A stretch of 64,000 bases of DNA from positions 6,923-70,922 of the forward strand of contig CAZEAI010000008.1 of the NCBI GenBank assembly GCA_964510105.1, written 5' to 3'. The notes below the pieces were generated by a model. The model was given only the letters and a program-made list of their open reading frames with translations, made no database searches and was not told the DNA's origin. Source of the DNA: an uncultured bacterium. Lineage in GTDB: Bacteria > Latescibacterota > MWCZ01. This document shows, piece by piece, positions 32,571-63,434 of the stretch (positions are counted from its first letter, which is position 1; each line of letters starts with the position of its first letter). The position numbers were made by a program, and so were the translations under genes.

Positions 32571-32671
32571 TGGTCAGACCGGGCCGTGCGTCGTCGGTCC
32601 AGTCGCATATCGCCGGGCGGCGGGATGGTCCCGTTCATCGCGCCGCCTGGATGCGGATTCAGTGGGCAGCA

Positions 32672-34683
32672 TGATTGCATCGACAACCGAGTCACGAAAC
32701 GAGGCAGACGTGAGCAAGGCATCATTCCCGCGCCAGATGGTACATCTGGACTTCCACACTTCGCCGCACATCCCGGACGTGGGGCGCGAATTCCACGCCG
32801 ACGACTTCGCCCGGACCTTCGCCGACGCACATGTCGACAGCGTCACGCTGTTTGCCAAGTGCCACCACGGCCACTTGTACTACGACACCGATCGCGCCGA
32901 ACGGCATCCGACGCTGCGGAAGGGGCTCGACCTCCTAGGCGAGCAGATCGAGGCGCTGCACCGACGCGGCATACGTGCGCCGATCTACGTGAGCGTTCAG
33001 GTCGACGAACACGCCGCGAACACCCATCCGGAGTGGATCGCCGTGGCCCCGGTCGGCGCGAAACTCGTCGGCGGCGGACCGGCCGTTCCGGGCTGGCAGA
33101 TACTCGACATGTCGAGCCCGTATCAGGAGTACTTCGCCGAGCAGCTTGCGGAGGTACTCGGGAAGTTCGCCCCGGTGGACGGCCTGTTCCTCGACATGTG
33201 CTGGGACCAGGTCAGCGTCTCCCGCTGGGCGCTCGACAGCATACGCAGCCGTGGCTACGATCCGCTCGACGCCGAGGATCGCCATCGGTACGCGCGCGAG
33301 GTGAGCCATTCGTACATGGATCGCTTCAAGACCATGATCGATGACGCTCAGGGCCACGGCGAGCCGGCGTACATCTGGTTCAACAGCCGACCGAAGACGA
33401 GTCTGCACGTCGAGAAGAAGTTCCTCCGCCACGTGGAGATCGAGAGCCTTCCGACCGGCGGGTGGGGCTACGCGTATTTCCCGTATGTATCGCGATTCGT
33501 GCGGCCATTCGGTCTGCCGACGCTGAGCCATACGGCGCGTTTCCATCGGAGCTGGGGCGATTTCGGCGGGCTGAAGCCGGAGGCGGCGCTGCTCTACGAA
33601 TGTTGTCTGATGCTCAGCCAGGGCGTCACGAGCGGCGTTGGCGACCAACTCCACCCGCGAGGAGTCCTCGATAGGGCCGCGTACGAGCGAATCGGCAGCG
33701 TGTACCGGTACATCGAATCGTGCGAGCCGTGGGTGGACAACGGCAGGGTGCTGAGCCAGATCGCCGTGATCGTGGACCCGGAACTCGGAGACGACCCCGG
33801 ACCGTCAGGACTGGGCGTTGTCCGGGCGCTCCAGGAACTGCGCCAGCAGTTCGACCTCGTCACCTCCACGGCGAAGCTCGATTCCTACGAACTCGTGATC
33901 GTCCCGGAGACGACTCCCGTCGACGATCGGCTGCGCGAGAAGCTCGCGGCGTACATCAAGGCGGGCGGCGCGCTGATCGTCAGCGGCGCGGCAGCGCTGG
34001 ACGATGCCGGAAAGCCGGTACTCCGGGAGCTTGGCATCCGCGCGGACGGGATGTCGCCGTATTCAACCACGTTCCTCCGCGCCGCTCCCGGACTGGAGCA
34101 CGCGCTGCCGGCGCTGGATCACGTAATGTACGAGCCGGGATTCCGTATGACTCCGGCGCGGGGAGCGCAGGTTCTGTGCCACGTTGTGGAGCCGTATTTC
34201 GAGCGTACATGGGAGCATTTCTGCTCGCACGCGCAGACGCCGCCGGACCACGCCGGCGAATGGGCTGCGGTCGTCCAGCACCGGAACGTGATCACGCTGG
34301 CGGCGCCGATCTTCACCGCGTACGGCAAGCACGCGAGCGTGCCCTATCGCCAGTTGCTCGGCGCGTGTATCGACCGTTTGCTGCCGCGCCCTCTCGTGCG
34401 CGACGACGGCCCGGCTCATCTGGAGACATCCGTGGTGAGGAAGGGGCGCCGGACGATCGTGCATCTCGTCAGTTTCTGCGCGGTGAGGAAAGCCGACGGG
34501 ATGGACATCGTGGACGATCCGTTCCCGCTCGTCGACATGCCACTGGCTGTGCGATACGATAGCGCCCCGCGGCGTGCGCTTCTCGCACCGGCGAACGAGG
34601 AGATTCCGTTCACGTATGATGACGGCTACGCGCATATGAACGTGACGTCGCTGACCGGGCATACGATGGTCGTAATCGAGTAG
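32672..34683 (+). CDS. putative glycoside hydrolase (GHL6-like catalytic domain with a GH42-type trimerisation-like domain)
   Basis: MVHLDFHTSPHIPDVG...FAKCHHGHLYYDTD resembles the hypothetical-glycosyl-hydrolase-6 family. The start is uncertain (32672 ATG or a nearby GTG). Confidence 0.45.
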
Positions 34684-34892
34684 CCGTAGCCGCGGTGGCG
34701 TTCGATGTAGCGCCATGCTCCTATCGCAGGCCACATTCGCGCCGAAAGCGCACTCCGGGCTGGGTTTGCGTATACGTGCGACACCTCCGTTCCTGACTGA
34801 TCACCCATTTGGCTCGCGGACGTTTCCAAGCGATATTGCTCGGCAGGTGTACCTCTGTGCTTGCCGAACCTCCTCGGACAAGGAGTGTGAAC

Positions 34893-35405
34893 ATGTCCCT
34901 CCGCCGCCTGTTCCCGTTCGTCGTCCTCGCGCTCTTGACATCACGCTCCCACGGCCAGGAGGCTTTTCGCGCCGCCCCGGTGGAGGAGCAGATCTCGATT
35001 GTGCAGGACATCGCGATCGCTGAACACACTCCTTCGATCAGAAATGCCTCCGTCACCAAAGACGGCCAGTACGTCGTTTCCCTGGACAACTACAACTACT
35101 ACAGCCTGTGGAGCCTCGGCGACGGCGCCCGGCTTCGCTACGAGTTCCTCGATTACGAGGACTACGAAGCGCAGGCGATGGCGATGTACCCGAACGGGTC
35201 TCATTTCGTCACCTTCGACACCCGATTCTCGGCCGAGACCCAGCGACCGGGCTTCGGCGTGCGTCAGTATCGACCCCACGACGGCAGTCTCGTTCGCACC
35301 CATTCGGGAGATTGGGGCGAACTCGCCGTCTTCGGAACGGTGTGGCGTGCCGCGGCCATCAGCGCCGACTGGCAGTATTTCGCCGGCGCGGTCAGGTCAA
35401 CGTAG
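34893..35405 (+). CDS. N-terminal fragment of a giant WD40/Fn3 T9SS cargo protein (signal peptide plus the first WD40 blades)
   Basis: AAGGAG RBS and signal peptide MSLRRLFPFVVLALLTSRSHG. The WD40-like motifs (TKDGQYVVSL, ISADWQYFAG) continue in the next segment in another frame. Confidence 0.5.
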   Translation: MSLRRLFPFVVLALLTSRSHGQEAFRAAPVEEQISIVQDIAIAEHTPSIRNASVTKDGQYVVSLDNYNYYSLWSLGDGARLRYEFLDYEDYEAQAMAMYPNGSHFVTFDTRFSAETQRPGFGVRQYRPHDGSLVRTHSGDWGELAVFGTVWRAAAISADWQYFAGAVRST

Positions 35406-38400
35406 AGGAGATCGGCTCTATCCCATCAGCGATCGTGATGCGCAAAACCGACGGCGAGGTCGTGTTCCGCTACACCGGCGATCCCGGCGTCGCCCAGGCT
35501 GTGGCGTTCAGCCCGGATGGCCAGTACTTAGCAGTCGGGGGGAATGAGCGGGATTCAGAATCGGGTTTCGTGAAAGTCTGGGAGCTTGCGACGGGCGATC
35601 TCGTACACACGCTCAGCCACGCACGAGTTGTCTATGCCGTGGCGTTCGCGCCGAACAGCGACACGCTCGTCTTCGGCGGCACCGACTTCACCGAGGAACC
35701 GGACACAGTCAAAGTGTGGGACCTCGGGAGCAGCACGCTGGTTCATGCCCTCCCACAGGAAGAACCCTATACGAAGGTCATCACAATCAGCCCGGACGGT
35801 GAAACCATCGTAACCGGTGGTCAGAGCATGGTCAACGTGTTCCGGATGGACGATGGCACGCTCGTCCGGTCGATCCCCGAGGTCCACTCGGCATCGCTGA
35901 AATCACTCTCTCTGGGCCTCGACGCCGAGATCGTGGTGTCGTCGAGCTTCGACGGAACCATCAAGGTGACCGAGTTGGGGTCCGGCCAGATTCTGCGGGA
36001 GATCGGCATCGGCACACTCCGGAGCGCGGTCATCAACTCCGCGGGACGGTATGTGACGTCTGCCAGCGGCGATGGTGCGCTTCGGAAGTGGAATCGATAC
36101 ACGGGCGAGCTGCTCCAGACATCGGTCGAGCGCCACACCGGTCCCATCGGTGCGCTATCGCTGAGGGGCGGAAGGTTGACGTCCGGCGGCGGCGGAATTG
36201 CCAGCTCGCTTCGATCGTGGTACGCTCGTACCCTCCGCCCGCGCGTCGAGTTCCTGGCCGAGTCGCGCACTAGATTCCTCGATGCAGTGGAGACGTATGC
36301 GGTCGATCGGTTCTACTACGTTGCGGCCACGCGTGGACAGGGCATCATGATCTGGGACGGCGAGACCGGCGAACTGGTCCACACTCTCGACGACGGGGCA
36401 ATCGTGGAGGCCGTCGCGGTCACCCCCGGTGGAGAGACGGTAGTCTCGGCGCCACGGGGCGGCAGCCTGAAGTACTGGCGATTGTCCGATGGAGAATTGC
36501 TCCACACCGAGGAGCTGGCGCACAACGATATCGTCGGTGGCCTCGCCATGACAGATGATGGGCAGTACGTGATTTCGGCCAGCATGGACGGCCTCATCAA
36601 GATCTGGCGGCTTTTCGACTACGGCCTGGAAGCCACGTTGACGCATCCGGAGTTGAGCGATGATAAGGGGTTGTTCGGCGTACGCGATCTGGCGGTGAGC
36701 CCGGATGGGCAGTACCTGGCGTGCGGCAGGCACGGCGACCTGTCATCCGTGGAAATATGGCGTATCAGTGACGGTAGCCTCGTTACGTCGGTGACGGGTC
36801 ACCGCGAGCCGATACGCAGCATCGCATTCGACGCCACGGGCAGCACGATCGTCACAGCCGGCGAGGACGACGTGATCTACACGTGGCTCGTGGATCCGCC
36901 GATGGGCATCATCCCGCCATCGAGCCTCGCGATCCAACCACGGTCCGGGCTTCCGGTGACCCCGATAATCCGCGCCACGCTTCACGGAGTCTCGGCCTGC
37001 ACCCTCAGCGTGAACGTCGACCCGACGAAGCTGGTGCCCGCCGAGAACTTCGTACCCGCCAGTGTGTACTCCGCGCAACCCGACGCAGCGGCGTCGTACA
37101 CGGTGGACGGCTCCACCATCACGGCGATAATCTCCGCGGGTCGGCCAGTCTCGCTTGTCAACGGATTCCTGGCGAAGCTTCTGTTCGAGGTCGCGCCGGG
37201 AGCCGAGCCGGGCACGGATGTCGCACTGACCTGGAACGTAAGCGGAACATCGTTAGGCGGCGACGCGCCGGACGAATTCGTCGACGCGGTCTACACGATA
37301 CCCGTGCCGCGCGACACGCGCATCACGGCCCTCTCGCCGGCAAGCGTGGCGGCGGGCGTCCCGAGCGAAGTGGTGATCTACGGCGCCAACTTCACCGGCG
37401 CGACGGAAGTCGCTCTTGTAGACGGTGGGGACGTGCCGATTGCGACATACTATGTCATCAACGACGGTCTCATTCGGGCGGTTCTCCCGGTGACGCTCAC
37501 CGCCGGCTCCTACCAGGTTCGCGTCTCGTCGCCCATCGGAACGTCTACGAGCGTCGAGACCCTCACCGTCACCGAGGCGTCGAGCGATACTCACCCGCCG
37601 GCCGGCGTGACCGATCTCAGCGTCGAATCGTCCACTACCACGAGCCTGCTCGTCCAGTGGACGGCACCCGCGGACACGCTCGACAATCTATCCATCGGCA
37701 CGGACCCGGTAGCGGGGTACGATCTGCGCGTGACGAGCGCGGTGATCGACTCCGAGACCTTCACGAGCCTGCCGCGTGTGCCTCTTTCGCCGCCGAAAGC
37801 TCCCGGCGAGATCGAGTCGGCATGGGTGGGCCCGCTGGAGTCCGGTCGGATCTATTTCGTTGCGCTTGTGAGCACTGACGATTCCGGCAATCGCTCCCAG
37901 ATATCGAATGTGGCCCACGGGATCACGTTGGAGGATACCGAGCCGCCGACCGCGCTGAAGCAGGTCGTAACCGCGATATCGGACGTGCAGGCTACCGTGA
38001 TCGTCGAGTCCGACGAACCGGCGAGAGCAGTGATGAAATTGTTCGAAGCGTTCGGCGGCTTGGCAGATACCATCGTCGTGGCAATCGACGAGCCGGCAAA
38101 GACACTTCGCCTTACAGCGGAGGGGCTCACGCCTTCGACGATATACGGGTACACCGTCGAACTCATCGATGAGCGCGAAAACTCATCCGTCACCACGATA
38201 CGTCCAATCACCACGTTGGCCTTCCCCGACGAGACACCCCCGTCGTTTGTTGTGCCGGTGTTCATGGGCACTCGCGCGGACAACTCCGTCACCCTGGGGT
38301 GGACCGCGAGCGAGCCGGTAACGTCGACGGTGTTGTACGGCGTCACGACCTCATACAGCGACTCGTTCGAGGTGACCGATGCGTCGCTCGCGAATGTCGT

Positions 38401-39985
38401 GAAGATCGAGGGGCTCGAGCCGTTGACGAGCTATCACTTGCAAGTTCGGCTGTACGATCTCGCCGGGAACGGCCCCATATCCAGCGACGACATCGTTCTG
38501 CGCACGCTACGCGATCCGGATGTCTACGCACCACAGTACATCGCGGCCCCGGCCGTCGTCTCGCGCGACTCGACCAGTGTCACGCTGACCTGGGCGACGG
38601 ACGTGCGCACGGAGGCAAGAATCGACTACGGTATGACCGAGGACTACGGCCTCGCGAAGGCCGTCTCCATTCTCGAGACGGCACACTCCGTGGTGCTGAC
38701 GAAGCTGCTCACCGACACCCGCTACTACTATCGCGTGACGGCGATCGACGAGGATGCAGCGGAGACGGCCTCGTCAGGCGGCGTCTTCCGCACAACGGAT
38801 GGACCCGATCTGAACCCGCCGGTGGTGCTGGAAAGTCCGGTGGCCATCGTCGGCACGGATGAAGTGCGGATACGCTACCGCACGGACGAGCCGGCGATGT
38901 CGCTCCTGCTGCTGTACGAGCAGGCGCAAGGCGCGCTGCTTCGCGTGATCCCGCCCGCGCTTGAGTTCACCACGGAGCACGAGGTGTACGTCGGCGGTCT
39001 GGAGCCGGGCAAGACGTACTACTACCACCTGACGCCGTTCGACATGGCGCGGAACGAGCCCATTCTCAGGCTGCGATCATTCCGCACGGCGGAGTCTCCT
39101 GACGAAACGCCACCTGTGTTCGTGGCGGGTCCGGCCGTCGCCTATTCCTCCGATGAGCGCGTGGTGATCCGGTGGCGCACCGACGAAGTCACTGCGGGTG
39201 AGCTTTGGTATCAGGCGGAGGGCGACTCGGTGGCAACGAGCGTCGTCGATCCAACGCTCGACTGGGGCCACCAGGTCACGATCACGAACCTCGAACCCGG
39301 CGCGAGTTTCGATTTCGCCGTCGTCGCGCGGGACATGAACGACAACGAGACGATCGAGCCCACCGGAAGCGTGATCAGCCTCGCCGCTGGAAAGCCCGCT
39401 AGGCTGGCCACCGGCAGGTCGAGTTCGTTCGCCACATCCGCGTCGCCGGACGAAGCGGCGCCGGTGATCCTGACCGGGCCGATGATCGTCGGCAGGAGCA
39501 GCCGGTCGCTATCGGTTGCGTGGAAGACCGACGAGGTCGGCACGAGCGTGGTGCGGTATGGCCGCGTGGCTGACGCGAGCGGGCGACTCGCCCAGGTCGT
39601 CTTCGACGGACAGACCGAAGACGGTGCGTTCGGTCGGGATCATCAGGTGACGCTCACGAACCTGACGCCTGGCGCAACATACCAGTTCGAGGTGGCGTCG
39701 GTAGACCAAGCGGGAAATGCCGAAACGACGTCCTCGCTGGCCGTAGCAAGCACAACCCCGACGGTGGACATTACCGCTCCGCGCATCACGGAGGGTCCGA
39801 ACGTCGACGTGAGCGACGACAAGGCAATCGTGCGCTGGCGCACCGATGAGATCGCCGACAGTGAGGTCAGCTACTGGGTCGGGAGTGATCCGGCAAACAC
39901 GGTGACGATCGGAGAGCGTACCAGGTCGCATGTGGTCGTGCTGACGAATCTGCAGGCGTCTACGGCCTACGAGTTCGTCGTATGA
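35381..39985 (+). CDS. central segment of the giant WD40 + fibronectin-III-like repeat protein (frame-shifted relative to 34893-35405)
   Basis: From QVNVEEIGSIPS onward there are clear WD40 repeats (FSPDGQYLAVGG, VWDLGSSTL...) and then at least 12 Fn3/PAP-N-like modules of about 100 aa each (...YYYRVTAIDEDAAE..., ...YQFEVASVDQAGNAE...). The first roughly 90 codons of the ORF-finder ORF (35108-) are Arg-rich overlap artefact. Confidence 0.55.
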   Translation, partial: RRRGQVNVEEIGSIPSAIVMRKTDGEVVFRYTGDPGVAQAVAFSPDGQYLAVGGNERDSESGFVKVWELATGDLVHTLSHARVVYAVAFAPNSDTLVFGGTDFTEEPDTVKVWDLGSSTLVHALPQEEPYTKVITISPDGETIVTGGQSMVNVFRMDDGTLVRSIPEVHSASLKSLSLGLDAEIVVSSSFDGTIKVTELGSGQILREIGIGTLRSAVINSAGRYVTSASGDGALRKWNRYTGELLQTSVERHTGPIGALSLRGGRLTSGGGGIASSLRSWYARTLRPRVEFLAESRTRFLDAVETYAVDRFYYVAATRGQGIMIWDGETGELVHTLDDGAIVEAVAVTPGGETVVSAPRGGSLKYWRLSDGELLHTEELAHNDIVGGLAMTDDGQYVISASMDGLIKIWRLFDYGLEATLTHPELSDDKGLFGVRDLAVSPDGQYLACGRHGDLSSVEIWRISDGSLVTSVTGHREPIRSIAFDATGSTIVTAGEDDVIYTWLVDPPMGIIPPSSLAIQPRSGLPVTPIIRATLHGVSACTLSVNVDPTKLVPAENFVPASVYSAQPDAAASYTVDGSTITAIISAGRPVSLVNGFLAKLLFEVAPGAEPGTDVALTWNVSGTSLGGDAPDEFVDAVYTIPVPRDTRITALSPASVAAGVPSEVVIYGANFTGATEVALVDGGDVPIATYYVINDGLIRAVLPVTLTAGSYQVRVSSPIGTSTSVETLTVTEASSDTHPPAGVTDLSVESSTTTSLLVQWTAPADTLDNLSIGTDPVAGYDLRVTSAVIDSETFTSLPRVPLSPPKAPGEIESAWVGPLESGRIYFVALVSTDDSGNRSQISNVAHGITLEDTEPPTALKQVVTAISDVQATVIVESDEPARAVMKLFEAFGGLADTIVVAIDEPAKTLRLTAEGLTPSTIYGYTVELIDERENSSVTTIRPITTLAFPDETPPSFVVPVFMGTRADNSVTLGWTASEPVTSTVLYGVTTSYSDSFEVTDASLANVVKIEGLEPLTSYHLQVRLYDLAGNGPISSDDIVLRTLRDPDVYAPQYIAAPAVVSRDSTSVTLTWATDVRTEARIDYGMTEDYGLAKAVSILETAHSVVLTKLLTDTRYYYRVTAIDEDAAETASSGGVFRTTDGPDLNPPVVLESPVAIVGTDEVRIRYRTDEPAMSLLLLYEQAQGALLRVIPPALEFTTEHEVYVGGLEPGKTYYYHLTPFDMARNEPILRLRSFRTAESPDETPPVFVAGPAVAYSSDERVVIRWRTDEVTAGELWYQAEGDSVATSVVDPTLDWGHQVTITNLEPGASFDFAVVARDMNDNETIEPTGSVISLAAGKPARLATGRSSSFATSASPDEAAPVILTGPMIVGRSSRSLSVAWKTDEVGTSVVRYGRVADASGRLAQVVFDGQTEDGAFGRDHQVTLTNLTPGATYQFEVASVDQAGNAETTSSLAVASTTPTVDITAPRITEGPNVDVSDDKAIVRWRTDEIADSEVSYWVGSDPANTVTIGERTRSHVVVLTNLQASTAYEFVV

Positions 39986-41527
39986 TCGGCGGACCTGCAG
40001 GACAACGGACCGGCCGAGGTGGCGGGCCTGTCGTTCACGACGTCCGCAAGCGCCGATGTCGATGCACCGACGATCGCCGGAATGGACGTGTCGGCGCTCG
40101 GTGACATCTCCGCGAAGATCGTCTGGACGACCAACGAACCGTCCGACAGCTTCGTGGAATTCGGAACGACGACGGCGCTCGGACTGGCGGAGGGCTCGGA
40201 GGAGACGGTGACGGACCACGAGGTGTGGCTGACGAACCTCGAGCCGAACACCGAGTACCATTTCGCGCCGACCTCTACCGACATCGCCGGCAACGACGCC
40301 TCCGAGCCGACCGACGCGTTTAGGACCCTGGCAGCGCCTGAGAGCGATCCGCCCGACGCGCCGCTCGGCGTGGACGCGGTGCCGGGAGACCAGGCGGTCC
40401 TCGTGACGTGGAACGCTGTAGCCGACGGAGACGTGGCGGGATACAATGTCTACCGTACTCCCGATGTGCTGGTGGCCACGCTCCTTCAGGACACAGTTCA
40501 CATCGAGGACGGGCTCGACAACGGAACGACGTATACCTACCAGGTGCAGGCGGTGGACGAGTTCGGTAACGAGAGCGCGCTCTCCACGGTGACCGGCGCG
40601 GCAACACCGGCCCCATCGAACGTTCCGTCGGCCCCGACCGCGTTGTACCCCACCGAAGGCTCCAGCGACGCGCTCCAGCCGTATCTGACGGCGGAACCGG
40701 CCGAACCATCCGCATCGCGGCCGGATGCGGAACTGGTGTACACGTTCGTGATCGCGCGCGACGCCGAGATGTCGGACATCGTCGCAACGAGTACACCGAC
40801 AGCGAAGCTCCCCGGCTATCGCCAGCCCTGGTGGAAGCTGGCAGTGATCGAGCTGGAGCATGACAGCACGTACTACTGGGCGGCGGCAGCCTCGGACGGC
40901 GTCTTCCGGGGGAGCCTGGGAACGCCGAACAGCTTCGTCGCGGACAGTTCCGCGGAAGCGGTACTCACCGACGTTGCGCTTGCGACCTTCGCCGCCACCC
41001 CCAACGCGCAAGGGATCACGGTGGAATGGTCCGGAGCCGAGCCCAACGACCGGTTCGTCGTGCTGCGATCCACTGAGGAGGACGGCCCGTCATCGCCGAT
41101 ATCGGGCTGGCTCACCGGGGAAACGTCGCACGAGTTCACGGACATGGCGGTTACCGGCGGCAGGGAATACTACTACCGACTGCAGCGCGTGTTCGCTTCC
41201 GGCGCAACTCACGGGTATGGACCCGTATCGGCCATCGCTTCGTTGCCGGACCGGTTCGCGCTCACCGGCGTCGCGCCGAATCCATTCAACCCGACGACGG
41301 TCATTCGGTTCGACGTCCCACGCGCCGAACCAATGCGGCTTGACATCTACAACGCCGTCGGGCAGAAGGTGCGGACACTCGTTGACGGCATCCTCACGCC
41401 GGGCGTACACGCTCGAACCTGGGACGGATGCGACGATACGCTGCGTGGACTCGGATCGGGCACCTACTTCATCAGGATGGAGGCAACACAGTACACAAAG
41501 ACGATCAAGGTCACCATGGTGAGGTAG
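39986..41527 (+). CDS. C-terminal segment of the giant repeat protein: Fn3-like modules plus a T9SS (Por) C-terminal sorting domain
   Basis: This lies in the same frame as 35381-39985, separated only by a TGA at 39983-39985. It ends with ...PNPFNPTTVIRFDVPRAEPMRLDIYNAVGQKVRTLVDG...GTYFIRMEA..., the TIGR04183-type T9SS CTD. The first ATG is at 40019. Confidence 0.55.
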   Translation, partial: SADLQDNGPAEVAGLSFTTSASADVDAPTIAGMDVSALGDISAKIVWTTNEPSDSFVEFGTTTALGLAEGSEETVTDHEVWLTNLEPNTEYHFAPTSTDIAGNDASEPTDAFRTLAAPESDPPDAPLGVDAVPGDQAVLVTWNAVADGDVAGYNVYRTPDVLVATLLQDTVHIEDGLDNGTTYTYQVQAVDEFGNESALSTVTGAATPAPSNVPSAPTALYPTEGSSDALQPYLTAEPAEPSASRPDAELVYTFVIARDAEMSDIVATSTPTAKLPGYRQPWWKLAVIELEHDSTYYWAAAASDGVFRGSLGTPNSFVADSSAEAVLTDVALATFAATPNAQGITVEWSGAEPNDRFVVLRSTEEDGPSSPISGWLTGETSHEFTDMAVTGGREYYYRLQRVFASGATHGYGPVSAIASLPDRFALTGVAPNPFNPTTVIRFDVPRAEPMRLDIYNAVGQKVRTLVDGILTPGVHARTWDGCDDTLRGLGSGTYFIRMEATQYTKTIKVTMVR

Positions 41528-42097
41528 GAGGCCGATCCGCCCCGGTCGGATTGGCGAATCGCGTGGCCGCGACGGGCGCTCTGTCCCTCGCGGCCGCCTG
41601 CGTGCGGGGTACCGCTGTGCGGGCTACCATGGGGGTGCCACGCCACCGCTGCCCTCGTCCGCACCCTCAACGCCGTGTCGACGTGCCTCCGGTGAGCGCT
41701 CAGGCTTCGCCCTTCGCGCAGGGTTTGATGTTCGCGCTATCCGAAGTAATTTCCACGCCATAAGCGGCAGTTAGCCATATCCGTTCCGTACCGAGCTAGG
41801 GCGAGGAAGGAATCGGTAATGGGCTCCCAACGGCTGTTCGACGGCGTACCTGTCGTACAGCGCTGCCTCGGCAGCCATCGCGAGACCCCCGCTGGATCTC
41901 CGAGTGCGTTCGGGCAAACGGCGTCTGCTCGCCACCTCCCAAGTTCCGCCCTGATCCATCCACGTCGTCCGACACCGCAGCCTTCGAATTGCAGCGTACT
42001 ACACCCGCGCCCGCGCCATCCCCACCATCGCAGACCATGCCATCGGCCTGCGCCGGAAGGGGCGGACGTTCTTGAGGCTCTCAAAGGAGAATGAGCT

Positions 42098-42601
42098 ATG
42101 CGAACAAGGCTGGGGTACTGGATCTCCGCCGGGATCGTCGTCCTGCTCGCGGGATGCACCGCGAACCAGGATTCCACGATCAAGTCGAATGTCGAGCGGT
42201 ACCTGACTGAGAGCGCTCGAGCTGTTAACGCGCGAGACTGGGAGGCTTACGGAGAACTCTTCACCGAAGACCTGCTGATGTTCGCTCCGGGATTTCCCGG
42301 GACAAGGGGGCGGGACGCTCGTCTGGAGATGGTTCAGGGCATCATGGCAGCGTTCCCTGACGGTCGCGTGGATGGGCAGCGGGCGTTCGGCAAGGGCGAA
42401 TGGGCCTGCTTCCAGTTCGAATTCTCCGGCACAAACACTGGGCCGCTCGCAGCGGCTGACGGCAGCGAGATACCCGCCACCAACAAATCTGTCAAGTTCT
42501 CATACTGCATCGTTGCGCGGTACGAGGCAGGGCAGATCGCCGAACTCCATGAGTACTTCGATCAGATGGACTTGCTGACGCAGCTTGGCCTTGTGCCGTA
42601 G
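42098..42601 (+). CDS. SnoaL-like (ester-cyclase / NTF2-fold) lipoprotein
   Basis: Lipobox LLAGC, followed by the typical SnoaL block ...DWEAYGELFTEDLLMFAPGFPG.... Confidence 0.55.
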   Translation: MRTRLGYWISAGIVVLLAGCTANQDSTIKSNVERYLTESARAVNARDWEAYGELFTEDLLMFAPGFPGTRGRDARLEMVQGIMAAFPDGRVDGQRAFGKGEWACFQFEFSGTNTGPLAAADGSEIPATNKSVKFSYCIVARYEAGQIAELHEYFDQMDLLTQLGLVP

Positions 42602-42760
42602 AGGGGGCTGAGCGACCGCATGGTGCGGACGGCGACCCCTGGCCTCGGCGAAAACAGTGGCGTCGGAGGGTTGACGCGTGCCGCTATGGCGAATCTCGCA
42701 CCGGATCAGCTCAACACAGGCTGCGTAGAGGTTAGGGACACTCTCAGAGGAGGGCGTACG

Positions 42761-43243
42761 ATGCGAGCGAGACAGACTTGCTGGATTGCCGTCGGGGTCG
42801 GCCTGATGTCCATGGGTTGCAGCGCGACGGGGATGGCGGACCGCGATGCTTTCGAGGCGGCAGCAAAGGAGTTGGCTCAGGACTACTCCGTGGCCGTGGA
42901 TAGTGGAGATGTGAATCTCTATGTCACCCATTTGGACGACAACGCGATATACATGGCGCCAGGCGCTCCGGAACACAGTGGGCGGGCGGCTGTCGGAAGA
43001 GCGTTGGGAGAGTGGTTCGCGGCAGTGAATTTCGAGGAATTCGCCGTCAACCTTGAAGAGTTCGAGGTGTTCGGTGATTTCGGCTACATCCGTGGCACGT
43101 ACTCCTGTCTCACGATCCCATGGGCAAGTGGGGACACAACTCGGTTTGAGGGCAAAGTCCTGAGCATCCTGAGACGGCAACCCGACGGTTCCTGGAGGAT
43201 CTACCGCGACTGCTTCAACTCGAACGGGCTTCCGGCTATCTGA
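42761..43243 (+). CDS. NTF2-like (DUF4440/SnoaL-type) lipoprotein
   Basis: Signal peptide with MSMGCS. The C-terminal ...RQPDGSWRIYRDCFNSN motif is shared with the 48597-51033 paralogues. Confidence 0.5.
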   Translation: MRARQTCWIAVGVGLMSMGCSATGMADRDAFEAAAKELAQDYSVAVDSGDVNLYVTHLDDNAIYMAPGAPEHSGRAAVGRALGEWFAAVNFEEFAVNLEEFEVFGDFGYIRGTYSCLTIPWASGDTTRFEGKVLSILRRQPDGSWRIYRDCFNSNGLPAI

Positions 43244-43452
43244 CGTTGGCGCCATACCGGCGCCGACGACGGCGAGCTGTCATGCGCACCGGGAGACGGA
43301 GACGCACCGGTCTTTACTACCAGCTATTCCTTAGTATATTACCCCCTGATGTCGATCGCTGAGCGGGATAGTTGTACACGGCCCGCCCGTTCCTAGTGCC
43401 CTCCGTAGGCGGGTGGTCCCGCGCACTGCCGGCGCCGCCCGAGGTGGTCGCA

Positions 43453-46400
43453 GTGGATACTCAACGGCGAGCAGACGACGCAACTCTGGTCGGGCGTTGC
43501 CTCGACGGTGACCGCGAGGCGTTTGCCGGGCTCGTGCAGGCCTACGAGCAGACCGCCCTCGCGACGGCGATGGCGTACGTCGGCAACTCGGACGACGCGG
43601 GAGACGTCACCCAGGACGCCTTCGTCACGGCCTTCACGTCGATCGGCGATCTACGAAACCCGGCGCAGTTCGGGAGCTGGTTCCGACGAATCGTGCAGCG
43701 GCACGCGCTTGAGCGTGTACGCGATGCCGGACGAAGCACCCCTCTCACCGACGAGCACGGCGCCACACCCCCGCCCGCGTCGCCGGATATGCCGCAGACA
43801 TCGTTCTCCGCCGACGTGTCGTCCGCCGTGCAACAGCTTCCGATGGCATACCGCGACATCGTCCTGATGTATTACCTCAACGACTTGTCCTACCGCGGCA
43901 TCGCGGAGATCATGGACCTGCCGGAGTCGACGATACGGAGCCGTCTGCGAACGGCACGGCGAAGGCTGAAAGGCGTCCTGCCCAGACAAGGCCGCAATCG
44001 CGGCGCCGACGACCACGGGCAGATCCGCTCGGCGATTCAGAAGTCGGTAGGCAAGCGCCACTATCGCGACGCTCTCGAACGCCTCCTGTCGGCCGGAATG
44101 GAGCACATACGCGATACGCTCTCGGATGAGGAACAGGAGCTGTTCGGACGGAACGTCGAGACGATCCTCTCGCACGTAACCGGCATCGAGGACGAAAGCC
44201 CGTGCAGAGCGGATTGGGGGGAGGCGCCCGACGTCGAGGGATTCGTCGGGCGCGCGGAGGAACTCGCGACGTTGCGCACGTGGATCGCGGACGAGCAGTC
44301 GCGCCTGATTGCCGTCATCGGTATGGGTGGAATCGGTAAGACAGCACTCGCGGCAAGAGCAGCCAGGATCGTCGCAGGCCAGTTCGAGTGCGTCTTCTGG
44401 CGATCGCTGGTGAACGGACCGCCGCTTTCGAATGTGCTCACTGAGTTGATCGGGCACCTTCTTGGCGAGTTCAGCGTGCCACGCTCCGATCGGATCGACG
44501 AGCAGATCCGACGCGTCATGGAGTACCTGCGGTCCCACCGCTGCCTCATCGTGTTGGATAACGTCGAGGGAATACTGGAGGCCGGCGCCGCCGGTCGCTT
44601 CCGCGAGGGATACGAAGGTTACGGGCAACTGATACGACAGTTCAGCGAGTGCCCTCACCAGAGCACGGCGCTGCTCACCAGCCGTGAGCGGCCGCGCGAT
44701 TTCGCTCTTGTGGAGCGTGTTGACGGAACCGAACTGCACGCCTTCGAGCTGAAAGGCTTGGATGGCGACGCCGCACGGGAGCTTCCGGGCCTGGAGAGCA
44801 TTGCAGCATCGGACGACGACTGGCAGACGCTGGTGGAGCATTTTTCCGGCAATCCGCTCGCTTTGAGGCTGGTGGCGGAGAAGGTGTTGGACCTGTTCGG
44901 GGGAGATCTGTCACACTTCCTCGCGGCCGGACTTCCGCTGTTCGACGACGTGCGCGACATACTCGATCGGCAGTTCGAACGCCTGACGCCGCTTGAGCGT
45001 GACGTGATGTGCTGGCTGGCGATCGTACGGGAGCCGGTAACTCCGGATGAGATCCGCGTACGACTGGTTCCGGCCGTGTCGGCGAGTGAGCTTCTCCAGA
45101 TCATGCACTCCCTCAGTCTGCGAACGCTCGTGGAGCACCGTTCGGGTACGTTCCTTCTGCAGAACGTCATCACCGAGTACGTTACCGACCGAATCGTCGA
45201 ACAGGCGGCCGGCGAAATCGCGGCGGGCCTGGTGACTCTCCTGGATACCCACCCGCTGACGATGGCAACGGCGAGACCCAACGTGAGAGACGCACAGCGG
45301 CGTCTGATACTGTCGCCCGTCGGCCTTCGCGTGGTGAACGAATTCGGCCCGAACGCCGTGGAAGAAGCGCTGAAGGCAACCGTCGATTCGCTTCGTGCCG
45401 GCGACGCGCTCCCGAACGGGTATGCCGCGGGCAACTACTTCGACCTCGTGGCTCATCTCTTCGGCGAGGTGGTCGGCTGGGATTTCTCGCACCTCTCGGT
45501 CCGTCAGGCGGACCTGACCAGTGCACACGTGCACGACACCAGCTTCGCGCACTCCGTGTTCGGCGAATGCGCGCTTCAGCACGCACATGGCAACGTGGAT
45601 TGGGCTGAATTCAGTCCCAGCGGCCGGGAGATAGCGATCTCAGCGTTCGGACGACTGGAAACGCGATCGTTCCCGGGCCTGGAGCCGCTCAGCGCCGATT
45701 GCACGGAGGGTGTACGGTCGGCGACGTACACGACAGACGGTCGCCTCCTCGCCATCCGTCTTGAGCACGCGGAGAGTTGGCCGGAAGCAGCCGATCGCTA
45801 CTCGCCTCGACGGATCGATGGTGGGACCGGTAGCAGATGGCATAACTCTGTGATGGATGTTGCATCTGGAGCGGCCCTGTTGGAATACGATGTGCAGTGG
45901 ATGAATATCGGCTGCCTATGCCCTTCCGGCAGGCTACTCGCCCACGACGACATCGACTTCACCATCAAGGTGCTCAACCTGGAGAACAAGGAGTGCGTCG
46001 CGACGCTGCCGAGCAGCGTAGGCCGCCTCTCTCAGCACGGACTGGCATTCCACCCGGACGGTGAGATGCTGGCAACCTGTGGCTACGACGGATCGGTCAG
46101 GGTGTGGGATGTTCGGTCAGCCGAATGCAAATGGACGTCCGAGCAACAAGGATGTAGCAGAATCGCATTCACCCCGGACGGCGACAAGCTTGCTATCTCC
46201 GATACCCACAGCCATCGGACTCGGTTCATGGACGCCGATTGCGGTACGTGTCGAGGCACCATGGAGGCGGCTCTGCTGTCGTTCCATCCCGACGGCAGAA
46301 CGGTGGCCGGTCACGATTCGGCCAACCGCATCGTGATCTGCGCCGTCGATACCTCCGATCTCGCGGCGACATTCCGAAGCGAAACGGGGATGGTGACGGC

Positions 46401-48279
46401 CGCCTCGTTCAGCCCGGATGGACGGTACTTGTTGGTGGCGGAGGAGCCGGGCCTGCTCCGCGTCTGGGATCTGGAGACGGGGCAAAGCCTGAATTCGTCA
46501 CAGGGAAACCGGCACGCGAACGAGCCGAGGGCCGATATCGACCCAACCGGAAGACTTGTGGCCGTAGGTGAGGAAGCGGGCCAGGTGCATGTCTGGGACG
46601 TATCGGCGTCGCGCGTCGTCACGACACTGCGTGAGCGAGAGGCCCTGCTATCTGCGCACGAGTTCACGCCCTCGGCAAGCTCTCCGTCTGAACGCGACTG
46701 GCTCAACATAGATGAAGAGTGGAGAGTCTACGATGAAGACTCGGAACTATGCATCAACACAGCGGATGGGAGTCTGCGACGACAGACGCACCGAATTGCC
46801 TCGCCTGTACGCGACGTGGTTTTCAGTCCGGACGGATCGCTTGTGTCGGGCGCGGATCCGGCGGACCGGGGATTCAGGGCATGGCACGTGAGCACGGGAG
46901 AGTGCGTTGGCTGGTACAACAGATCGCATGCCGTCCGCTATGTCTGTTTCGCGCCGAATAGCTCGCTCGTCGCCTGTCACACGACGGATGACGAGGCCGA
47001 ATATCCGACAACGATCTGGAATTGTCGTACCGGGCAGCTCGTTCGTGGGCTCCCGTGTCACTCGTGGCATATGGCTTTCACCCCGGACGGCAGAACCTTC
47101 GCGGGAGCGACCTACCGCGACGGGGAATTCGTCATGAACCTGTGGGACGTTTCCTCGGGTGAGCGACGGCTGTCCCTCGAAGCGCGGGAGTGGATAACGT
47201 ATTTCTGGCTCTACAGCGTGACCGGATTCAGCGCGGACGGGAGACTGCTGGGTACGTGTCTGGGCGGCCCGAACTACAGGGGAGCCATCGTGTGGGATAC
47301 GGCTGTAGCTGAGCCGCTGCTGAAGGTGCCCGGCAGCAAATACCTCAGCTTCCTCGAGAACGACCGAGTGTTGGTTCGCGGCGGGATGGAAGGCCAGACG
47401 GTGTCGGTCGTGGACGTCCGAACGGGTGAACAGATGGACTCGTGGAACACCAGTATCACCGGCCCGACCAGAGCATTCAGCTCCGACGGCAGGATGATTG
47501 TCACGGCATCGGAGCATCAGCCGGGTGTATCGGTCTGGAATGTCGACGATGGATCCCACGTGTGCACGATTCCCCGGATTCGTCCGTACGATGGAACGAA
47601 CATCGCGCACGCGGACGGGCTGACGCCTGCCGAAACAGCGACACTGAAACGCCTGGGCGCCATCGAGCAAGAGGTGGGGCTCTCCCCTGCCGAGCCCCAG
47701 TCGCCGCCGCGTTCGTCGCCACGGGACCCTCTCGAACGACGATTCACCGCATGGGCAGGGGGACCGAGGGCGCTCGTGTCGGTCGTCTGCGTCGAAGCGG
47801 CCGATCGAACCATCCTGTCCGACCGGCTTGAGGGTAACCAGCGCGTCGAACGCATGCGCGCCCGGCACGCACAACGGCTGCGGGATCTCACCGGTCGGCA
47901 CCACGGGCTGACAATCTGCGACGACGGCGCGAGCGCTTCCATCGCTTTCCACACACCCACGGAGGCGCTGGAGTTCACGCGAGAGTGCCGTCGAGAGACA
48001 GAAGCGGACGGGATCAGGCTGCTTACCGGCATCCATGTGGAATCGATCAGGATCGGGAGCGAGGACCCCTTCGACCACCTTGCCACACACCTTACCGGGA
48101 TAGTCGAGAAGGCGAATTCGTCCGGGGTCTGGGCGAGCGACGAATACAAGGACCTCCTTGCGAGATTCGGTCCGAACGGCCTGCCGGAGCCGGTGTGGAT
48201 CATGCACCCCAACTGCCAGCTCAAAGGGCTTCCGGGGAAGCACAAGCTATGGTCGCTGACCGACGACGCGCCGGCCTGA
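43453..48279 (+). CDS. ECF sigma-70 factor fused to an NB-ARC/STAND NTPase, WD40 repeats and a C-terminal class-III-cyclase-homology-like domain
   Basis: Sigma-70 region 2 (AFAGLVQAYEQTALATAMAYVGNSDDAGDVTQDAFVTAF) and region 4 (LPMAYRDIVLMYYLNDLSYRGIAEIMDLPESTIRSRLRTARRRLKG). Then FVGRAEELATLRTW...IAVIGMGGIGKTALA...CLIVLDNVE...GNPLALRLV, the NB-ARC P-loop/GxP motifs. Then at least 10 WD40 units (FHPDGEMLATCGYDGSVRVWDV...). Then a roughly 170-aa C-terminal domain matching the cyclase pattern (...IRLLTGIHVESIRIG...VWIMHPNCQLKGLPGKHKLWSL). This is one uninterrupted frame. The start is set at the GTG at 43453 after AGGTGG; the exact start is uncertain (43372-43453). Confidence 0.65.
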   Translation: MDTQRRADDATLVGRCLDGDREAFAGLVQAYEQTALATAMAYVGNSDDAGDVTQDAFVTAFTSIGDLRNPAQFGSWFRRIVQRHALERVRDAGRSTPLTDEHGATPPPASPDMPQTSFSADVSSAVQQLPMAYRDIVLMYYLNDLSYRGIAEIMDLPESTIRSRLRTARRRLKGVLPRQGRNRGADDHGQIRSAIQKSVGKRHYRDALERLLSAGMEHIRDTLSDEEQELFGRNVETILSHVTGIEDESPCRADWGEAPDVEGFVGRAEELATLRTWIADEQSRLIAVIGMGGIGKTALAARAARIVAGQFECVFWRSLVNGPPLSNVLTELIGHLLGEFSVPRSDRIDEQIRRVMEYLRSHRCLIVLDNVEGILEAGAAGRFREGYEGYGQLIRQFSECPHQSTALLTSRERPRDFALVERVDGTELHAFELKGLDGDAARELPGLESIAASDDDWQTLVEHFSGNPLALRLVAEKVLDLFGGDLSHFLAAGLPLFDDVRDILDRQFERLTPLERDVMCWLAIVREPVTPDEIRVRLVPAVSASELLQIMHSLSLRTLVEHRSGTFLLQNVITEYVTDRIVEQAAGEIAAGLVTLLDTHPLTMATARPNVRDAQRRLILSPVGLRVVNEFGPNAVEEALKATVDSLRAGDALPNGYAAGNYFDLVAHLFGEVVGWDFSHLSVRQADLTSAHVHDTSFAHSVFGECALQHAHGNVDWAEFSPSGREIAISAFGRLETRSFPGLEPLSADCTEGVRSATYTTDGRLLAIRLEHAESWPEAADRYSPRRIDGGTGSRWHNSVMDVASGAALLEYDVQWMNIGCLCPSGRLLAHDDIDFTIKVLNLENKECVATLPSSVGRLSQHGLAFHPDGEMLATCGYDGSVRVWDVRSAECKWTSEQQGCSRIAFTPDGDKLAISDTHSHRTRFMDADCGTCRGTMEAALLSFHPDGRTVAGHDSANRIVICAVDTSDLAATFRSETGMVTAASFSPDGRYLLVAEEPGLLRVWDLETGQSLNSSQGNRHANEPRADIDPTGRLVAVGEEAGQVHVWDVSASRVVTTLREREALLSAHEFTPSASSPSERDWLNIDEEWRVYDEDSELCINTADGSLRRQTHRIASPVRDVVFSPDGSLVSGADPADRGFRAWHVSTGECVGWYNRSHAVRYVCFAPNSSLVACHTTDDEAEYPTTIWNCRTGQLVRGLPCHSWHMAFTPDGRTFAGATYRDGEFVMNLWDVSSGERRLSLEAREWITYFWLYSVTGFSADGRLLGTCLGGPNYRGAIVWDTAVAEPLLKVPGSKYLSFLENDRVLVRGGMEGQTVSVVDVRTGEQMDSWNTSITGPTRAFSSDGRMIVTASEHQPGVSVWNVDDGSHVCTIPRIRPYDGTNIAHADGLTPAETATLKRLGAIEQEVGLSPAEPQSPPRSSPRDPLERRFTAWAGGPRALVSVVCVEAADRTILSDRLEGNQRVERMRARHAQRLRDLTGRHHGLTICDDGASASIAFHTPTEALEFTRECRRETEADGIRLLTGIHVESIRIGSEDPFDHLATHLTGIVEKANSSGVWASDEYKDLLARFGPNGLPEPVWIMHPNCQLKGLPGKHKLWSLTDDAPA

Positions 48280-48390
48280 CGCAATTCTCAGTCGCCGCGC
48301 GACCGACAAGTCGCACGGGCTCGGCACGATCCATGAACTCCTCGCGGCGCGTCGCCCCACCACGGGGATCGTCAGGCGGTATTTTCGCAG

Positions 48391-48495
48391 TGCGGTAAGC
48401 GACTTACGCACCTTTCGCGCTATACCCCCCTGGGGGTCGGAATGCCTCGACATGAGCACATCCAGCCACCGTACTCCATCTAGTAGGCAGCAGCG
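48391..48495. repeat. about 100-bp conserved intergenic element A with a CCCCCC-T-GGGGG palindrome
   Basis: About 75% identical to 51271-51360 (GCGACTTACGCA..TTTCGC.CTATACCCCCC(T)GGGGGGTCG.AATGCC...CATCC...CCATC). Confidence 0.5.
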
Positions 48496-48596
48496 GGCAG
48501 AGCAGCGGTGATTCGTATCGCCGTGAGAAGCCTCGTGTTGTACCGATTCGAACCAGATCAACTGGACACCCGGCACACACGCGGAGGAGGAGAGCA

Positions 48597-49085
48597 ATGC
48601 GCACGAAATCAGTGTGCTGGATCGCCAGCGGCATCATCGCCACCATCGTTGTTCTCGCGGGCTGCGGCGACGGCTCGGCGGACGCGTCGGGCGATGTGGA
48701 CTTCGGCGCAACTCTTGCGGAACATGCGGCGAAGTATGCCGCGGCGTGCAACGCGGGCGATGCGGACGCCTACTGCGCCTTACTCGACGAGAGTTTCACT
48801 CAGTTGCCACCAGGCGCTCCACCATTCATTGGGAAGGCAGCCGTCAGGGATGCGATAGGAGGGTTTTTCGAGGCATACGATCTCGAGGATTTCACGATCG
48901 AAACACAAACGTACGAGGTGTCCAGGGAATTTGCATGGAATTGGGGCACGTATTCCTATCGCACGGCTCCAATGGGTACGACCGATTTCGCTCCGTACGA
49001 GGGCAAGTACCTGAGCGTACTGAAGAAGCAGCCTGACGGTACCTGGTTGTTCTACATTGGCTGCTTCAACTCGAACACGCATTAG
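48597..49085 (+). CDS. NTF2-like (DUF4440/SnoaL-type) lipoprotein, paralogue 1
   Basis: GGAGGAGG RBS and lipobox VLAGCGDG. Conserved blocks ...AAACNAGDADAY...FAWNWGTYS...KKQPDGTWLFYIGCFNSN. Confidence 0.6.
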   Translation: MRTKSVCWIASGIIATIVVLAGCGDGSADASGDVDFGATLAEHAAKYAAACNAGDADAYCALLDESFTQLPPGAPPFIGKAAVRDAIGGFFEAYDLEDFTIETQTYEVSREFAWNWGTYSYRTAPMGTTDFAPYEGKYLSVLKKQPDGTWLFYIGCFNSNTH

Positions 49086-49248
49086 GGTAGATCGCGCCGT
49101 CGGCGATAGCACCAACGAAACGGGCGGGTCTCCTGAGATGGCAGCCCCGTACCGCCTGCACGGCCGACAGCGATCTGCGGAAACCGGAGCGACTGGGGAG
49201 TTCGTTCCGGCGCATCGTTCAACAGCTCCTCGAAGGGGAGGAAGAGCA

Positions 49249-49746
49249 ATGCGATCACGACTGACGCGTTGGATTATCAGCCGTATTGCGGGCAGCAGCG
49301 ACGACGCGACCACAGTCCCGACGACGGCGGAGACCGAGGGCTTCGAGACGGGCCCCGAGGAATTTGTGCGGGCCTTTGTGGCAGCGTGTAAGGCTGGGGA
49401 TCTGGATACCTACATGGCCCTTGTCGACAAGGACTTCGTCAGGATGCCCCCGGATGCTCCACCGATCGTCGGAGAAGCGGCGATCAGGGAGTGGGCCAAA
49501 GGTTTCTTCGAGACATTGGAACTTGAGGAATTCACGGTCGATAATCGCGAATCCCACGTGTTCGGCGATTTTGCCTGGTTCTGGGGCACGCACTACATTC
49601 GCTCGGCTGTCAAGGGACAGGAACCCTCGGTATGCGAGCATATCGACGGCAAGCACCTCACTGTTCTGAAGAAACAGGCTGATGGCTCCTGGGCGGTGAT
49701 CGCCGACTGCTTCAATGGAAACGCACCTCCTACTGTGCCAAACTGA
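49249..49746 (+). CDS. NTF2-like protein, paralogue 2 (lipobox Cys replaced: IAGSSDD)
   Basis: Same fold blocks as paralogue 1. The start is at MRSRLTRWIISRIAGSSDD, preceded by the GGGGAGGAAGAG motif shared by all paralogues. Confidence 0.55.
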   Translation: MRSRLTRWIISRIAGSSDDATTVPTTAETEGFETGPEEFVRAFVAACKAGDLDTYMALVDKDFVRMPPDAPPIVGEAAIREWAKGFFETLELEEFTVDNRESHVFGDFAWFWGTHYIRSAVKGQEPSVCEHIDGKHLTVLKKQADGSWAVIADCFNGNAPPTVPN

Positions 49747-49885
49747 CGCGGTGGGGGGGCATCCGAACGCGCCGGGCGGGCTGCCGTGCGGGTAGCTCCG
49801 GCCGCTCTCAACGTCGCACGGCGGTCAAGCGATCCACAGAGGCCTGCGCACCGTTCAGCAGCGTCTCGAAGAGGAGGAAGAGTAA

Positions 49886-50391
49886 TGCGAACGCAACTAG
49901 CCCGTTGGGTCACCAGCGGCATCATCGTCGTTCTCGCGGGCTGCGGCGACGACAGGGACAGCGGCCCAACGGCGGCCGAGATCGAAGCCTTCGAGGCGGC
50001 TGAGGTGACGCTTCCGCAAGCGTATGCCGCGGCGTGTAACGCGGGGGATGCGGACGCGTACGTCGCTCTTATCGATGACGACTACGTTCAACTGCCCCCT
50101 GATGCTCCACCGGTCATTGGGAAACCGGCCATGCTCGAGCGAATCAGACTGATGTTCGGGGCGTATGATTTCGAAGAATTCACCGTCGATAACCGCAAGG
50201 CGGAGATGTTTGGCGACTGGGGTTGGGTCTGGGGTACGCACTCCTATCTCCTGGCACCCCAGGGCACGACCGAATTCACAAAGTACGACGGCAAGCACCT
50301 GAGCATTCTGAAGCGGCAAGCCGACGGTTCCTGGCTGTTCTACGGCGACGCCTTCAACTACAACGCTCCCGCGATGAAACTGGCGCCCTGA
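49886..50391 (+). CDS. NTF2-like lipoprotein, paralogue 3
   Basis: MRTQLARWVTSGIIVVLAGCGDD lipobox. Conserved ...AAACNAGDADAY...KRQADGSWLFYGDAFNYN. Confidence 0.6.
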
Positions 50392-63415: not shown

Positions 63416-63434
63416 GAATTCCCTCCGATCGTCG

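Follow-up and report, generated by a model that had tools for sequence, protein, structure and literature searches.

A giant WD40/Fn3 cargo gene of an uncultured Latescibacterota bacterium is very probably a young pseudogene carrying two lesions

The stretch of DNA analysed here (the window; 64 kb of contig CAZEAI010000008.1, from an uncultured bacterium of the Latescibacterota, in whose coordinates all positions are given) carries at 34893–41527 on the forward strand one conceptual gene of 2,211 codons that is broken by a frame change and an in-frame TGA. We conclude that this region is very probably a genuine young pseudogene, formed by two hits, of a giant cargo gene of the kind served by the type IX secretion system (T9SS). 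The ancestral gene would have encoded a Sec signal peptide, WD40 propellers, a TIG domain, about ten modules resembling Fn3 domains and the N-terminal domain of purple acid phosphatases (PAP-N), and a sorting domain like that of T9SS type A cargo. Two mutations would have inactivated it: one G was lost from a GGG run at 35388–35392, so that translation from the native start would end four codons further on at TAG 35403–35405, and a CGA-to-TGA transition took place at 39983.

A reading of this DNA made from the letters and open reading frames (ORFs) alone, hereafter the sequence-only reading, had described a gene of about 2,200 amino acids (aa) with one frameshift and one in-frame TGA, and all the main features of that description were found where it had placed them. 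It had left the choice between a recent pseudogene, an assembly error in a repeat, and a candidate for recoding or readthrough. The first of these is upheld by intact single-ORF orthologues, including that of a sister strain with ~91% nucleotide identity which has GCGGGT and CGA at the two lesion sites.

Organization of the interrupted gene

The ATG of the ancestral gene at 34893 is preceded at a distance of 7 nucleotides (nt) by AAGGAG (34880–34885, forward strand; read from the sequence), a Shine–Dalgarno (SD)-like motif which shows that SD sites are used by this organism. Three pieces follow, all on the forward strand. Piece A (34893–35405) comprises 170 codons and the stop TAG 35403–35405, and encodes a signal-peptide-like N-terminus and then the first ~2.5 propeller blades. 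Its product starts MSLRRLFPFVVLALLTSRSHGQ and ends ...ISADWQYFAGAVRST (...YFAGAVRST), with the last four codons (VRST) being an out-of-frame reading beyond the deletion; the signal-peptide-like N-terminus, as judged by eye, is MSLRRLFPFVVLALLTSRSHG-QE. Piece A is colinear with residues 1–167 of two intact orthologous proteins, P0002 and P0122.

The frameshift site (35388–35392) reads GCGGT in the window and GCGGGT (Ala-Gly) in the intact sister, a 1-nt deletion within a GGG run that shifts translation into the −1 frame. That frame has no stop between 35108 and TGA 39983–39985, and from 35390 its product reads GQVNVEEIGSIPS.... Piece B (35390–39982; 1,531 codons in the −1 frame) contains the remaining propellers, the TIG domain, and Fn3-like modules 1–8, the last of these cut short, and NCBI's call for it is P0001, a protein of 1,515 aa starting at ATG 35438. 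The premature stop, TGA at 39983–39985, lies within module 8 at a position occupied by CGA (Arg) in the sister strain and by Arg in P0002, and thus corresponds to a C-to-T transition. Piece C (39986–41527) has 513 codons and the stop TAG 41525–41527; it comprises the end of module 8, modules 9–10, a stretch of ~210 aa with no assigned family, and the sorting domain, and its start is called at GTG 40019 or ATG 40082. A joined translation of 2,211 aa, used in the searches below, was made from piece A up to Ala166, piece B, one residue for the TGA, and piece C.

A hairpin at 41596–41671, ~70 nt 3' of the gene's stop, may have served the ancestral gene as its terminator; its match to Rfam mir-598 is spurious (27.7 bits, cutoff 69).

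Ancestral state of the two lesions

A search with the joined protein recovered P0002, a protein of 2,208 aa encoded by a single gene on an 85-kb JGI contig, at 62% amino acid identity and 100% query coverage. The remaining matches were confined to the WD40 part (13–31% of the query), with one match to the Fn3 part. A search with the two repaired junction segments gave one unrelated match at 33% identity and missed the known P0001 and P0002, so its negative outcome has no weight. A metagenome scan with the alignment of orthologues and one for the exact TGA/CGA site were empty, but the collection evidently does not contain these samples, and the scans have no bearing on intact alleles. A second uninterrupted protein, P0122 (2,213 aa), was found in the 90% cluster of the middle piece and derives from two ENA samples (loci L010 and L011), and a third, P0126 (2,208 aa), is intact, 91% identical to P0002, and like it 62% identical to the window protein. 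The sequence-only reading had envisaged that orthologues might prove to be separate genes at these boundaries; P0122, P0002, and P0126 are each single ORFs, with lengths of 2,208–2,213 aa. A distant orthologue with ~57% amino acid identity, L009, lies on contig CAZSJP010000052.1 (3.6x coverage) of the GTDB metagenome-assembled genome (MAG) SRP077602_co2_316. The gene family is narrow, with three or four lineages found.

The closest of these relatives is the sister strain represented by P0122 and L010, with ~91% nucleotide identity over the gene. L010 is syntenic with window positions 32632–48674, across a GHL6 glycosidase, the giant gene, two SnoaL genes, and a gene fusing sigma70, NB-ARC, and WD40 domains, and the syntenic neighbors indicate that L010 is the orthologous locus. 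Between the window and L010 the DNA of the gene differs by two indels only, one of 1 nt at the frameshift and an in-frame one of 6 nt at 35688. P0002 was compared at the protein level only; its global alignment with the window gene has 17 gap columns out of 2,218 and is colinear across both lesion sites.

At the frameshift, GCC GGC GCG G-T CAG in the window aligns with GCC GGG GCG GGT AAT in L010, and the corresponding proteins read YFAGA|GQVNVEE (window), YVAGAGNVNVD (P0122), YVAAAGLIEVE (P0002), and YTAGAGKLWPP (L009). No frameshift is present at this point in P0122/L010, L011, P0002, P0126, or L009. The TGA at 39983 aligns with CGA in L010 and with Arg in both P0122 and P0002; the Ala to which the sequence-only reading had aligned it belongs to a paralogous repeat and gives way to the Arg of the true orthologues. 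Because the orthologues keep one uninterrupted ORF with GCGGGT (Ala-Gly) and CGA (Arg) at the two sites, both lesions are derived, the first through loss of one G from the GGG run and the second through a CGA-to-TGA transition.

The 6-nt in-frame indel at 35688 falls in a loop of the first propeller, where the window has TDF--TEEPD and the sister strain TDYPRTDLPD; P0002 has the longer form. Identity to L010 is mosaic: ~88–92% upstream, 75–86% across 35.0–37.0 kb (the WD40 part, with a synonymous divergence, dS, of ~0.6), and 94–98% from ~37.4 to 46.6 kb (dS 0.10–0.15). As dS rises four- to sixfold near 37.3 kb, the gene may contain a recombination breakpoint there.

Recurrence of the lesions in other assemblies

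Both lesions recur unchanged in contigs that were assembled separately from at least 4–5 BioSamples in three projects by the JGI, ENA/SUTE22-1, ENA/SCRA20-1, and NCBI MAG pipelines. The exact 170-aa truncated product is encoded on at least four other contigs (SAMN10231921, SAMN10231903, SAMN11854481, and JGI 3300009374), and the exact 502-aa post-TGA product on contigs of SAMN10231921, SAMN10231904, SAMN11854494, and JGI 3300009374. Lesion-bearing contigs are 99.92–100% identical to the window over 1.3–13.5 kb. One of them, L012 (protein P0124), differs by single-nucleotide polymorphisms (SNPs) located 47–52 nt upstream of the TGA and retains the TGA itself. Recurrence in separately assembled contigs excludes the error of a single assembly, and both lesions are genuine population-level alleles, present in every sampled contig of a near-clonal population. 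One of the BioSamples is from a marine oxygen-deficient water column (PMC12220078). The study codes suggest that the site may be the Cariaco Basin.

These observations bear directly on whether the gene is intact in the true genome, in which case the absent G and the T of 39983 would be consensus errors of sequencing or assembly. Such an artefact would be helped by the GC-rich surroundings of the deletion, which shortens a brief run of G (GGG to GG), and by the internal repetitiveness of the gene. However, consensus errors would have had to arise identically in contigs from all of these BioSamples and from different pipelines, and the TGA is also found on a haplotype distinguished by nearby SNPs (L012/P0124). 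The Fn3 modules differ too much from one another to have been collapsed, and the gene aligns colinearly with that of the intact sister with only the two indels described above. Neither lesion lies at a point of repeat collapse, and the assembly error in a repeat that the sequence-only reading had allowed for does not fit these data; we regard an artefact of any kind as highly improbable.

Recoding, genetic code, and phase variation

Programmed recoding offers another way to keep the gene alive, whereby a −1 (or +2) frameshift near 35390 and UGA read-through or selenocysteine insertion at 39983 would together yield a full-length cargo protein. The two frames overlap by ~300 nt, making such a shift geometrically possible, and the rest of the gene is free of decay. 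Within the frame overlap (35100–35410), however, there is no slippery X_XXY_YYZ heptamer and no homopolymer of five or more. RNA downstream of the frameshift folds worse than shuffled sequences (z = +1.42 for 35392–35470 and z = +1.88 for 35405–35490), and RNA downstream of the TGA folds about as well as shuffles do (z = −0.68 for 39983–40042 and z = −0.54 for 39983–40070), so that no stimulatory structure was seen at either site. Rfam searches returned no selenocysteine insertion sequence (SECIS) or frameshift element: gathering thresholds left the window without any match, and relaxing them to E ≤ 1 within 34700–41700 yielded only the spurious microRNA-like hairpin after the gene.

Comparison with relatives points the same way. 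The orthologues lack the frameshift and have Arg (CGA), rather than Cys or selenocysteine, at the position of the TGA, and two independent recoding events in one gene, both absent from the sister strain, would be very unparsimonious. Genes that use programmed frameshifting, such as dnaX, the IS3-family transposases, and prfB, resemble the interrupted gene in that two overlapping frames encode one conserved protein, but a slippery sequence, a stimulatory structure, and conservation of the shift in orthologues are all missing here. The recoding or readthrough proposed by the sequence-only reading is thus left without a signal in the DNA or a counterpart in relatives, and we consider it extremely unlikely.

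The same reading had noted that neighboring genes use TGA as a normal stop, and this is confirmed by the 39 genes predicted in the window, which end in TGA (18), TAG (20), or TAA (1). A TGA-reassigned code (tables 4 and 25) was rejected on these grounds, as TGA ends 18/39 genes, no other predicted gene requires an in-frame TGA, and GC content is 64%. The genetic code is standard. Judging by termination contexts in E. coli, a TGA with T as the next base stops translation efficiently. It is barely conceivable that the gene remains functional through non-canonical recoding, combining a frameshift at the non-slippery GCG-GUC with UGA read-through or context-specific reassignment; if this were true, the absence of decay and the stop found in L009 (below) would be hints of a lineage habit and not of gene death.

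Phase variation was also considered and rejected. Phase-variable surface genes with simple sequence repeats (contingency loci) share with this gene the switching off of a large surface-protein gene by an indel in a mononucleotide run, but here the run is GGG/GG only, the second lesion is a non-reversible nonsense mutation, and no intact allele was found in the window lineage. Tracts known to slip often enough to be useful are far longer than GGG.

Domain architecture and fate of the fragments

The WD40 beta-propeller region (35025–36901, forward strand; residues ~45–670) is split by the frameshift. It matches PF00400 with 115.5 bits (cutoff 27) along with many other propeller models, and probably forms two propellers. 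A structural model (AlphaFold2, AF2) of the intact orthologue P0002, covering residues 1–440, was built from a shallow alignment and is of moderate quality (predicted local distance difference test, pLDDT, 66.5; predicted template modeling score, pTM, 0.68), with residues 120–370 mostly >70. This model is all-beta, with an unbroken four-stranded blade periodicity over residues 50–435, and its top Foldseek matches are WD40 propellers, led by 2ymu (E = 5.6e-21) and followed by G-beta and designed seven-bladed propellers. Residues 167/168, equivalent to the frameshift, sit within a predicted strand (E163–172) of this propeller. The position of the frameshift within a strand of a continuous modeled propeller indicates that piece A is an incomplete propeller fragment and not a separate domain. 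The view that one WD40 domain spans the frameshift, taken from the sequence-only reading, therefore agrees with the continuous orthologue model over residues 50–435, while at the level of piece A alone it finds no backing in Pfam, which gives no match to this piece, WD40 included.

Downstream of the propellers is an IPT/TIG domain (37322–37528, forward strand) that only just passes its threshold (PF01833, 21.3 bits vs cutoff 20.9) and precedes the Fn3/PAP-N-like array (37586–40636, forward strand). The array consists of ~10 tandem modules of 96–116 aa (residues 899–1915), each of which starts with D-x(1-3)-[PA]-P, and it matches PF16656 (Pur_ac_phosph_N) with 141.9 bits (cutoff 30) and PF00041 (fn3) with 98 bits (cutoff 25). 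Two earlier estimates are revised by this delimitation. The number of Fn3-like repeats, put at ~20 before, is about ten, preceded by the TIG domain, and the ~1500 aa assigned to Fn3/PAP-N-like modules after the frameshift begin with ~500 aa of WD40 propeller in piece B. The TGA at 39983–39985 interrupts module 8.

Past this TGA the frame does reopen toward a C-terminal T9SS domain, as the sequence-only reading had it, with 513 codons where ~500 had been estimated. The sorting domain (41270–41512, forward strand; T9SS type A or FlgD-Ig-like) scores above cutoff with NCBIfam TIGR04183 (Por_Secre_tail; 24.7 bits vs cutoff 23, on residues 429–509 of piece C) and with PF13860 (FlgD_ig; 30.6 bits vs cutoff 27), and below cutoff with Pfam PF18962 (17–18 bits vs 27). 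Membership in the T9SS type A cargo, as judged by these hidden Markov models, is marginal. Signal peptide and sorting domain lie on separate ORFs in the window allele and on one polypeptide in the intact P0122 and P0002.

This separation matters for the possibility of gene fission, in which the lesions gave rise to separately translated and useful proteins: a small secreted N-terminal stub, a cytoplasmic WD40/Fn3 protein from about ATG 35438, and a fragment with the C-terminal domain from GTG 40019 or ATG 40082. Gene callers do produce three ORFs, and both downstream pieces keep a low ratio of nonsynonymous to synonymous divergence (dN/dS) relative to the sister strain. The breaks, though, do not respect domains, as the frameshift is placed inside a propeller beta-strand by the model, which would leave piece A and the start of piece B as incomplete domains, and the TGA falls inside Fn3 module 8. 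The candidate restarts (GTG 35435, ATG 35438, GTG 40019, and ATG 40082) lack SD-like sequence, whereas the native start has AAGGAG, and pieces B and C have no signal peptide. Given how Sec and T9SS work, a sorting domain on a piece C without a signal peptide would be unusable, and the low dN/dS can be accounted for by the youth of the lesions. Fission is, in our assessment, very unlikely.

The secreted N-terminal fragment without a sorting domain and the separate fragment carrying that domain, both foreseen by the sequence-only reading, do follow from the sequence as predicted products. Of these, the sole product made efficiently would be the 170-aa stub bearing the signal peptide and an incomplete propeller. 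The stretches of 1,531 and 513 codons would not be made as functional surface protein, since both are without a signal peptide or a convincing ribosome-binding site, and since no exported chain now carries the sorting domain. Function of the fragments after the frameshift thus seems unlikely from their sequences.

Age of the inactivation and evidence for selection

Divergence from the sister strain retains the pattern of a constrained gene. By the Nei–Gojobori method, dN/dS relative to L010 is 0.21 for piece A, 0.19 for the WD40 part of piece B, 0.11 for the Fn3 part of piece B, and 0.18 for piece C, with an overall dS of 0.25. When polarized by P0002, lineage-specific replacements number 42 for the window and 54 for P0122 (p = 0.26). 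The low dN/dS and the lack of an excess of replacements on the window branch imply that nearly all the divergence accrued under purifying selection and that the gene was inactivated recently. Measured against the divergence of the two strains, inactivation is recent, and the gene would so far have gone without further decay, while the sister strain and distant relatives keep it uninterrupted. The damage is also isolated: the other 37 predicted genes of the window do not look like fragments, and the neighbors covered by L010 are intact in both strains.

Several points weigh against a pseudogene. The dN/dS values of 0.11–0.21 show no sign of relaxed constraint, which fits a very young pseudogene and equally a gene that is still functional. 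SNPs in the gene within the lineage are five nonsynonymous and one synonymous, a ratio that fits drift; at n = 6, and with two nonsynonymous SNPs likewise present in the intact gene upstream, it is anecdotal. Support for the lesions is at the level of assembled contigs. The samples are probably from one basin and one near-clonal population, so that "independent" here means independent sequencing and assembly and not independent evolution.

We also considered whether loss was itself selected, a refinement of pseudogenization in which the surface protein was a liability (e.g., as a phage receptor or a grazer target) and null alleles were swept to fixation. Both lesions look fixed across samples, and the family is narrow and the gene evidently dispensable. 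The distant orthologue L009 is intact at the first junction but has its own, different in-frame TAG (L009:9508–9510) in the second propeller (GAGDG*LKFWR), where all other orthologues have Ser, which would bring the number of disrupted lineages to two of four; its contig ends before the position of the TGA. At 3.6x coverage, however, this TAG may be an error, and it could be either that or an independent inactivation. Fixation in a near-clonal population can also come from drift or hitch-hiking, and no evidence of a phage or a receptor was obtained. Recurrent or selected loss of the surface protein, which hangs on the one low-coverage stop in L009, is unproven, and we think selection for loss rather improbable.

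A recent unitary pseudogene remains our preferred interpretation. The gene resembles ordinary unitary pseudogenes in having lesions of the commonest mutational types, intact orthologues, and intact surroundings. It does not differ from them in kind, and its dN/dS and counts of changes are still those of a functional gene.

Relation to known systems and genomic surroundings

The ancestral gene is comparable to T9SS type A cargo, which includes large adhesins and hydrolases of Bacteroidota and the FCB group. It shares with them a signal-peptide-like N-terminus, a modular body rich in Ig/Fn3 domains, and a C-terminal beta-sandwich of ~80 aa that reaches the TIGR04183 and FlgD_ig cutoffs. It differs in that a frameshift and a stop stand between the signal peptide and the sorting domain in the window allele, that PF18962 stays below threshold, and that the host belongs to a GC-rich (64%) uncultured lineage. 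Pfam and NCBIfam scans of the predicted genes in the 64-kb window, in which most genes were scanned with one library, revealed no T9SS component. Other genes of the window have a tail of this kind, among them the one at 53646–56045.

The N-terminal ~650 aa of the giant protein consist of WD40 blades, as in bacterial WD40 proteins such as the highly repetitive Nostoc punctiforme propeller (PDB 2ymu), and this region has matches at 22–31% identity to many WD40 proteins of cyanobacteria and planctomycetes. Most of those proteins are STAND/NTPase or kinase fusions of the cytoplasm, whereas the giant protein combines its blades with a secretion signal, Fn3 modules, and a sorting domain. An N-terminal WD40 double propeller on T9SS cargo appears to be uncommon, as full-length matches came from only three or four orthologue lineages.

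The surroundings of the gene include glycoside hydrolases (GH116, GHL6, and GH32/43-like), BNR, FG-GAP, and beta-helix proteins with FlgD_ig tails, URO-D-like proteins, Mdh, and a CysNC/CysH/sulfotransferase cluster. Named relatives of this malate dehydrogenase (Mdh) reach at best 67% identity and come from Anaerolineae, Latescibacteria, and Caldithrix. At 43372–48279 an ORF of 1,635 aa fuses regions 2 and 4 of an extracytoplasmic function (ECF)-type sigma-70 factor to an NB-ARC NTPase and WD40 propellers; the sister strain retains this ORF (1,665 aa), and in Gemmataceae a protein of similar architecture has been named (P0040). It is flanked, within 42098–51033, by six SnoaL/DUF4440-like paralogues of 136–169 aa, most of which appear to be N-terminally extended. 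GC content falls from ~64% to 57–60% at 58000–64000, over a sulfate-activation and sulfotransferase cluster that comprises a CysN/CysC fusion, PAPS reductase, Sulfotransfer_3, and arylsulfotransferase.

In two other assemblies (L002 and L003) contigs break at 41802/41803, with a 1-nt indel at 41818 and nine clustered SNPs at 41971–42024. This variable patch (41803–42024) is intergenic and upstream of a SnoaL gene, has identical flanks, and is strain-variable.

Implications

Because the lesions are genuine population-level alleles and not assembly noise, the region at 34893–41527 should be annotated as one pseudogene, and not as three hypothetical proteins or as a case of recoding. The loss of this giant WD40/Fn3 surface protein was very recent and took place in a near-clonal population, probably of marine oxygen-deficient water. 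It is a small and ordinary example of strain-level variation in the cell-surface repertoire, in which a sister strain, co-existing or neighboring, keeps the gene.

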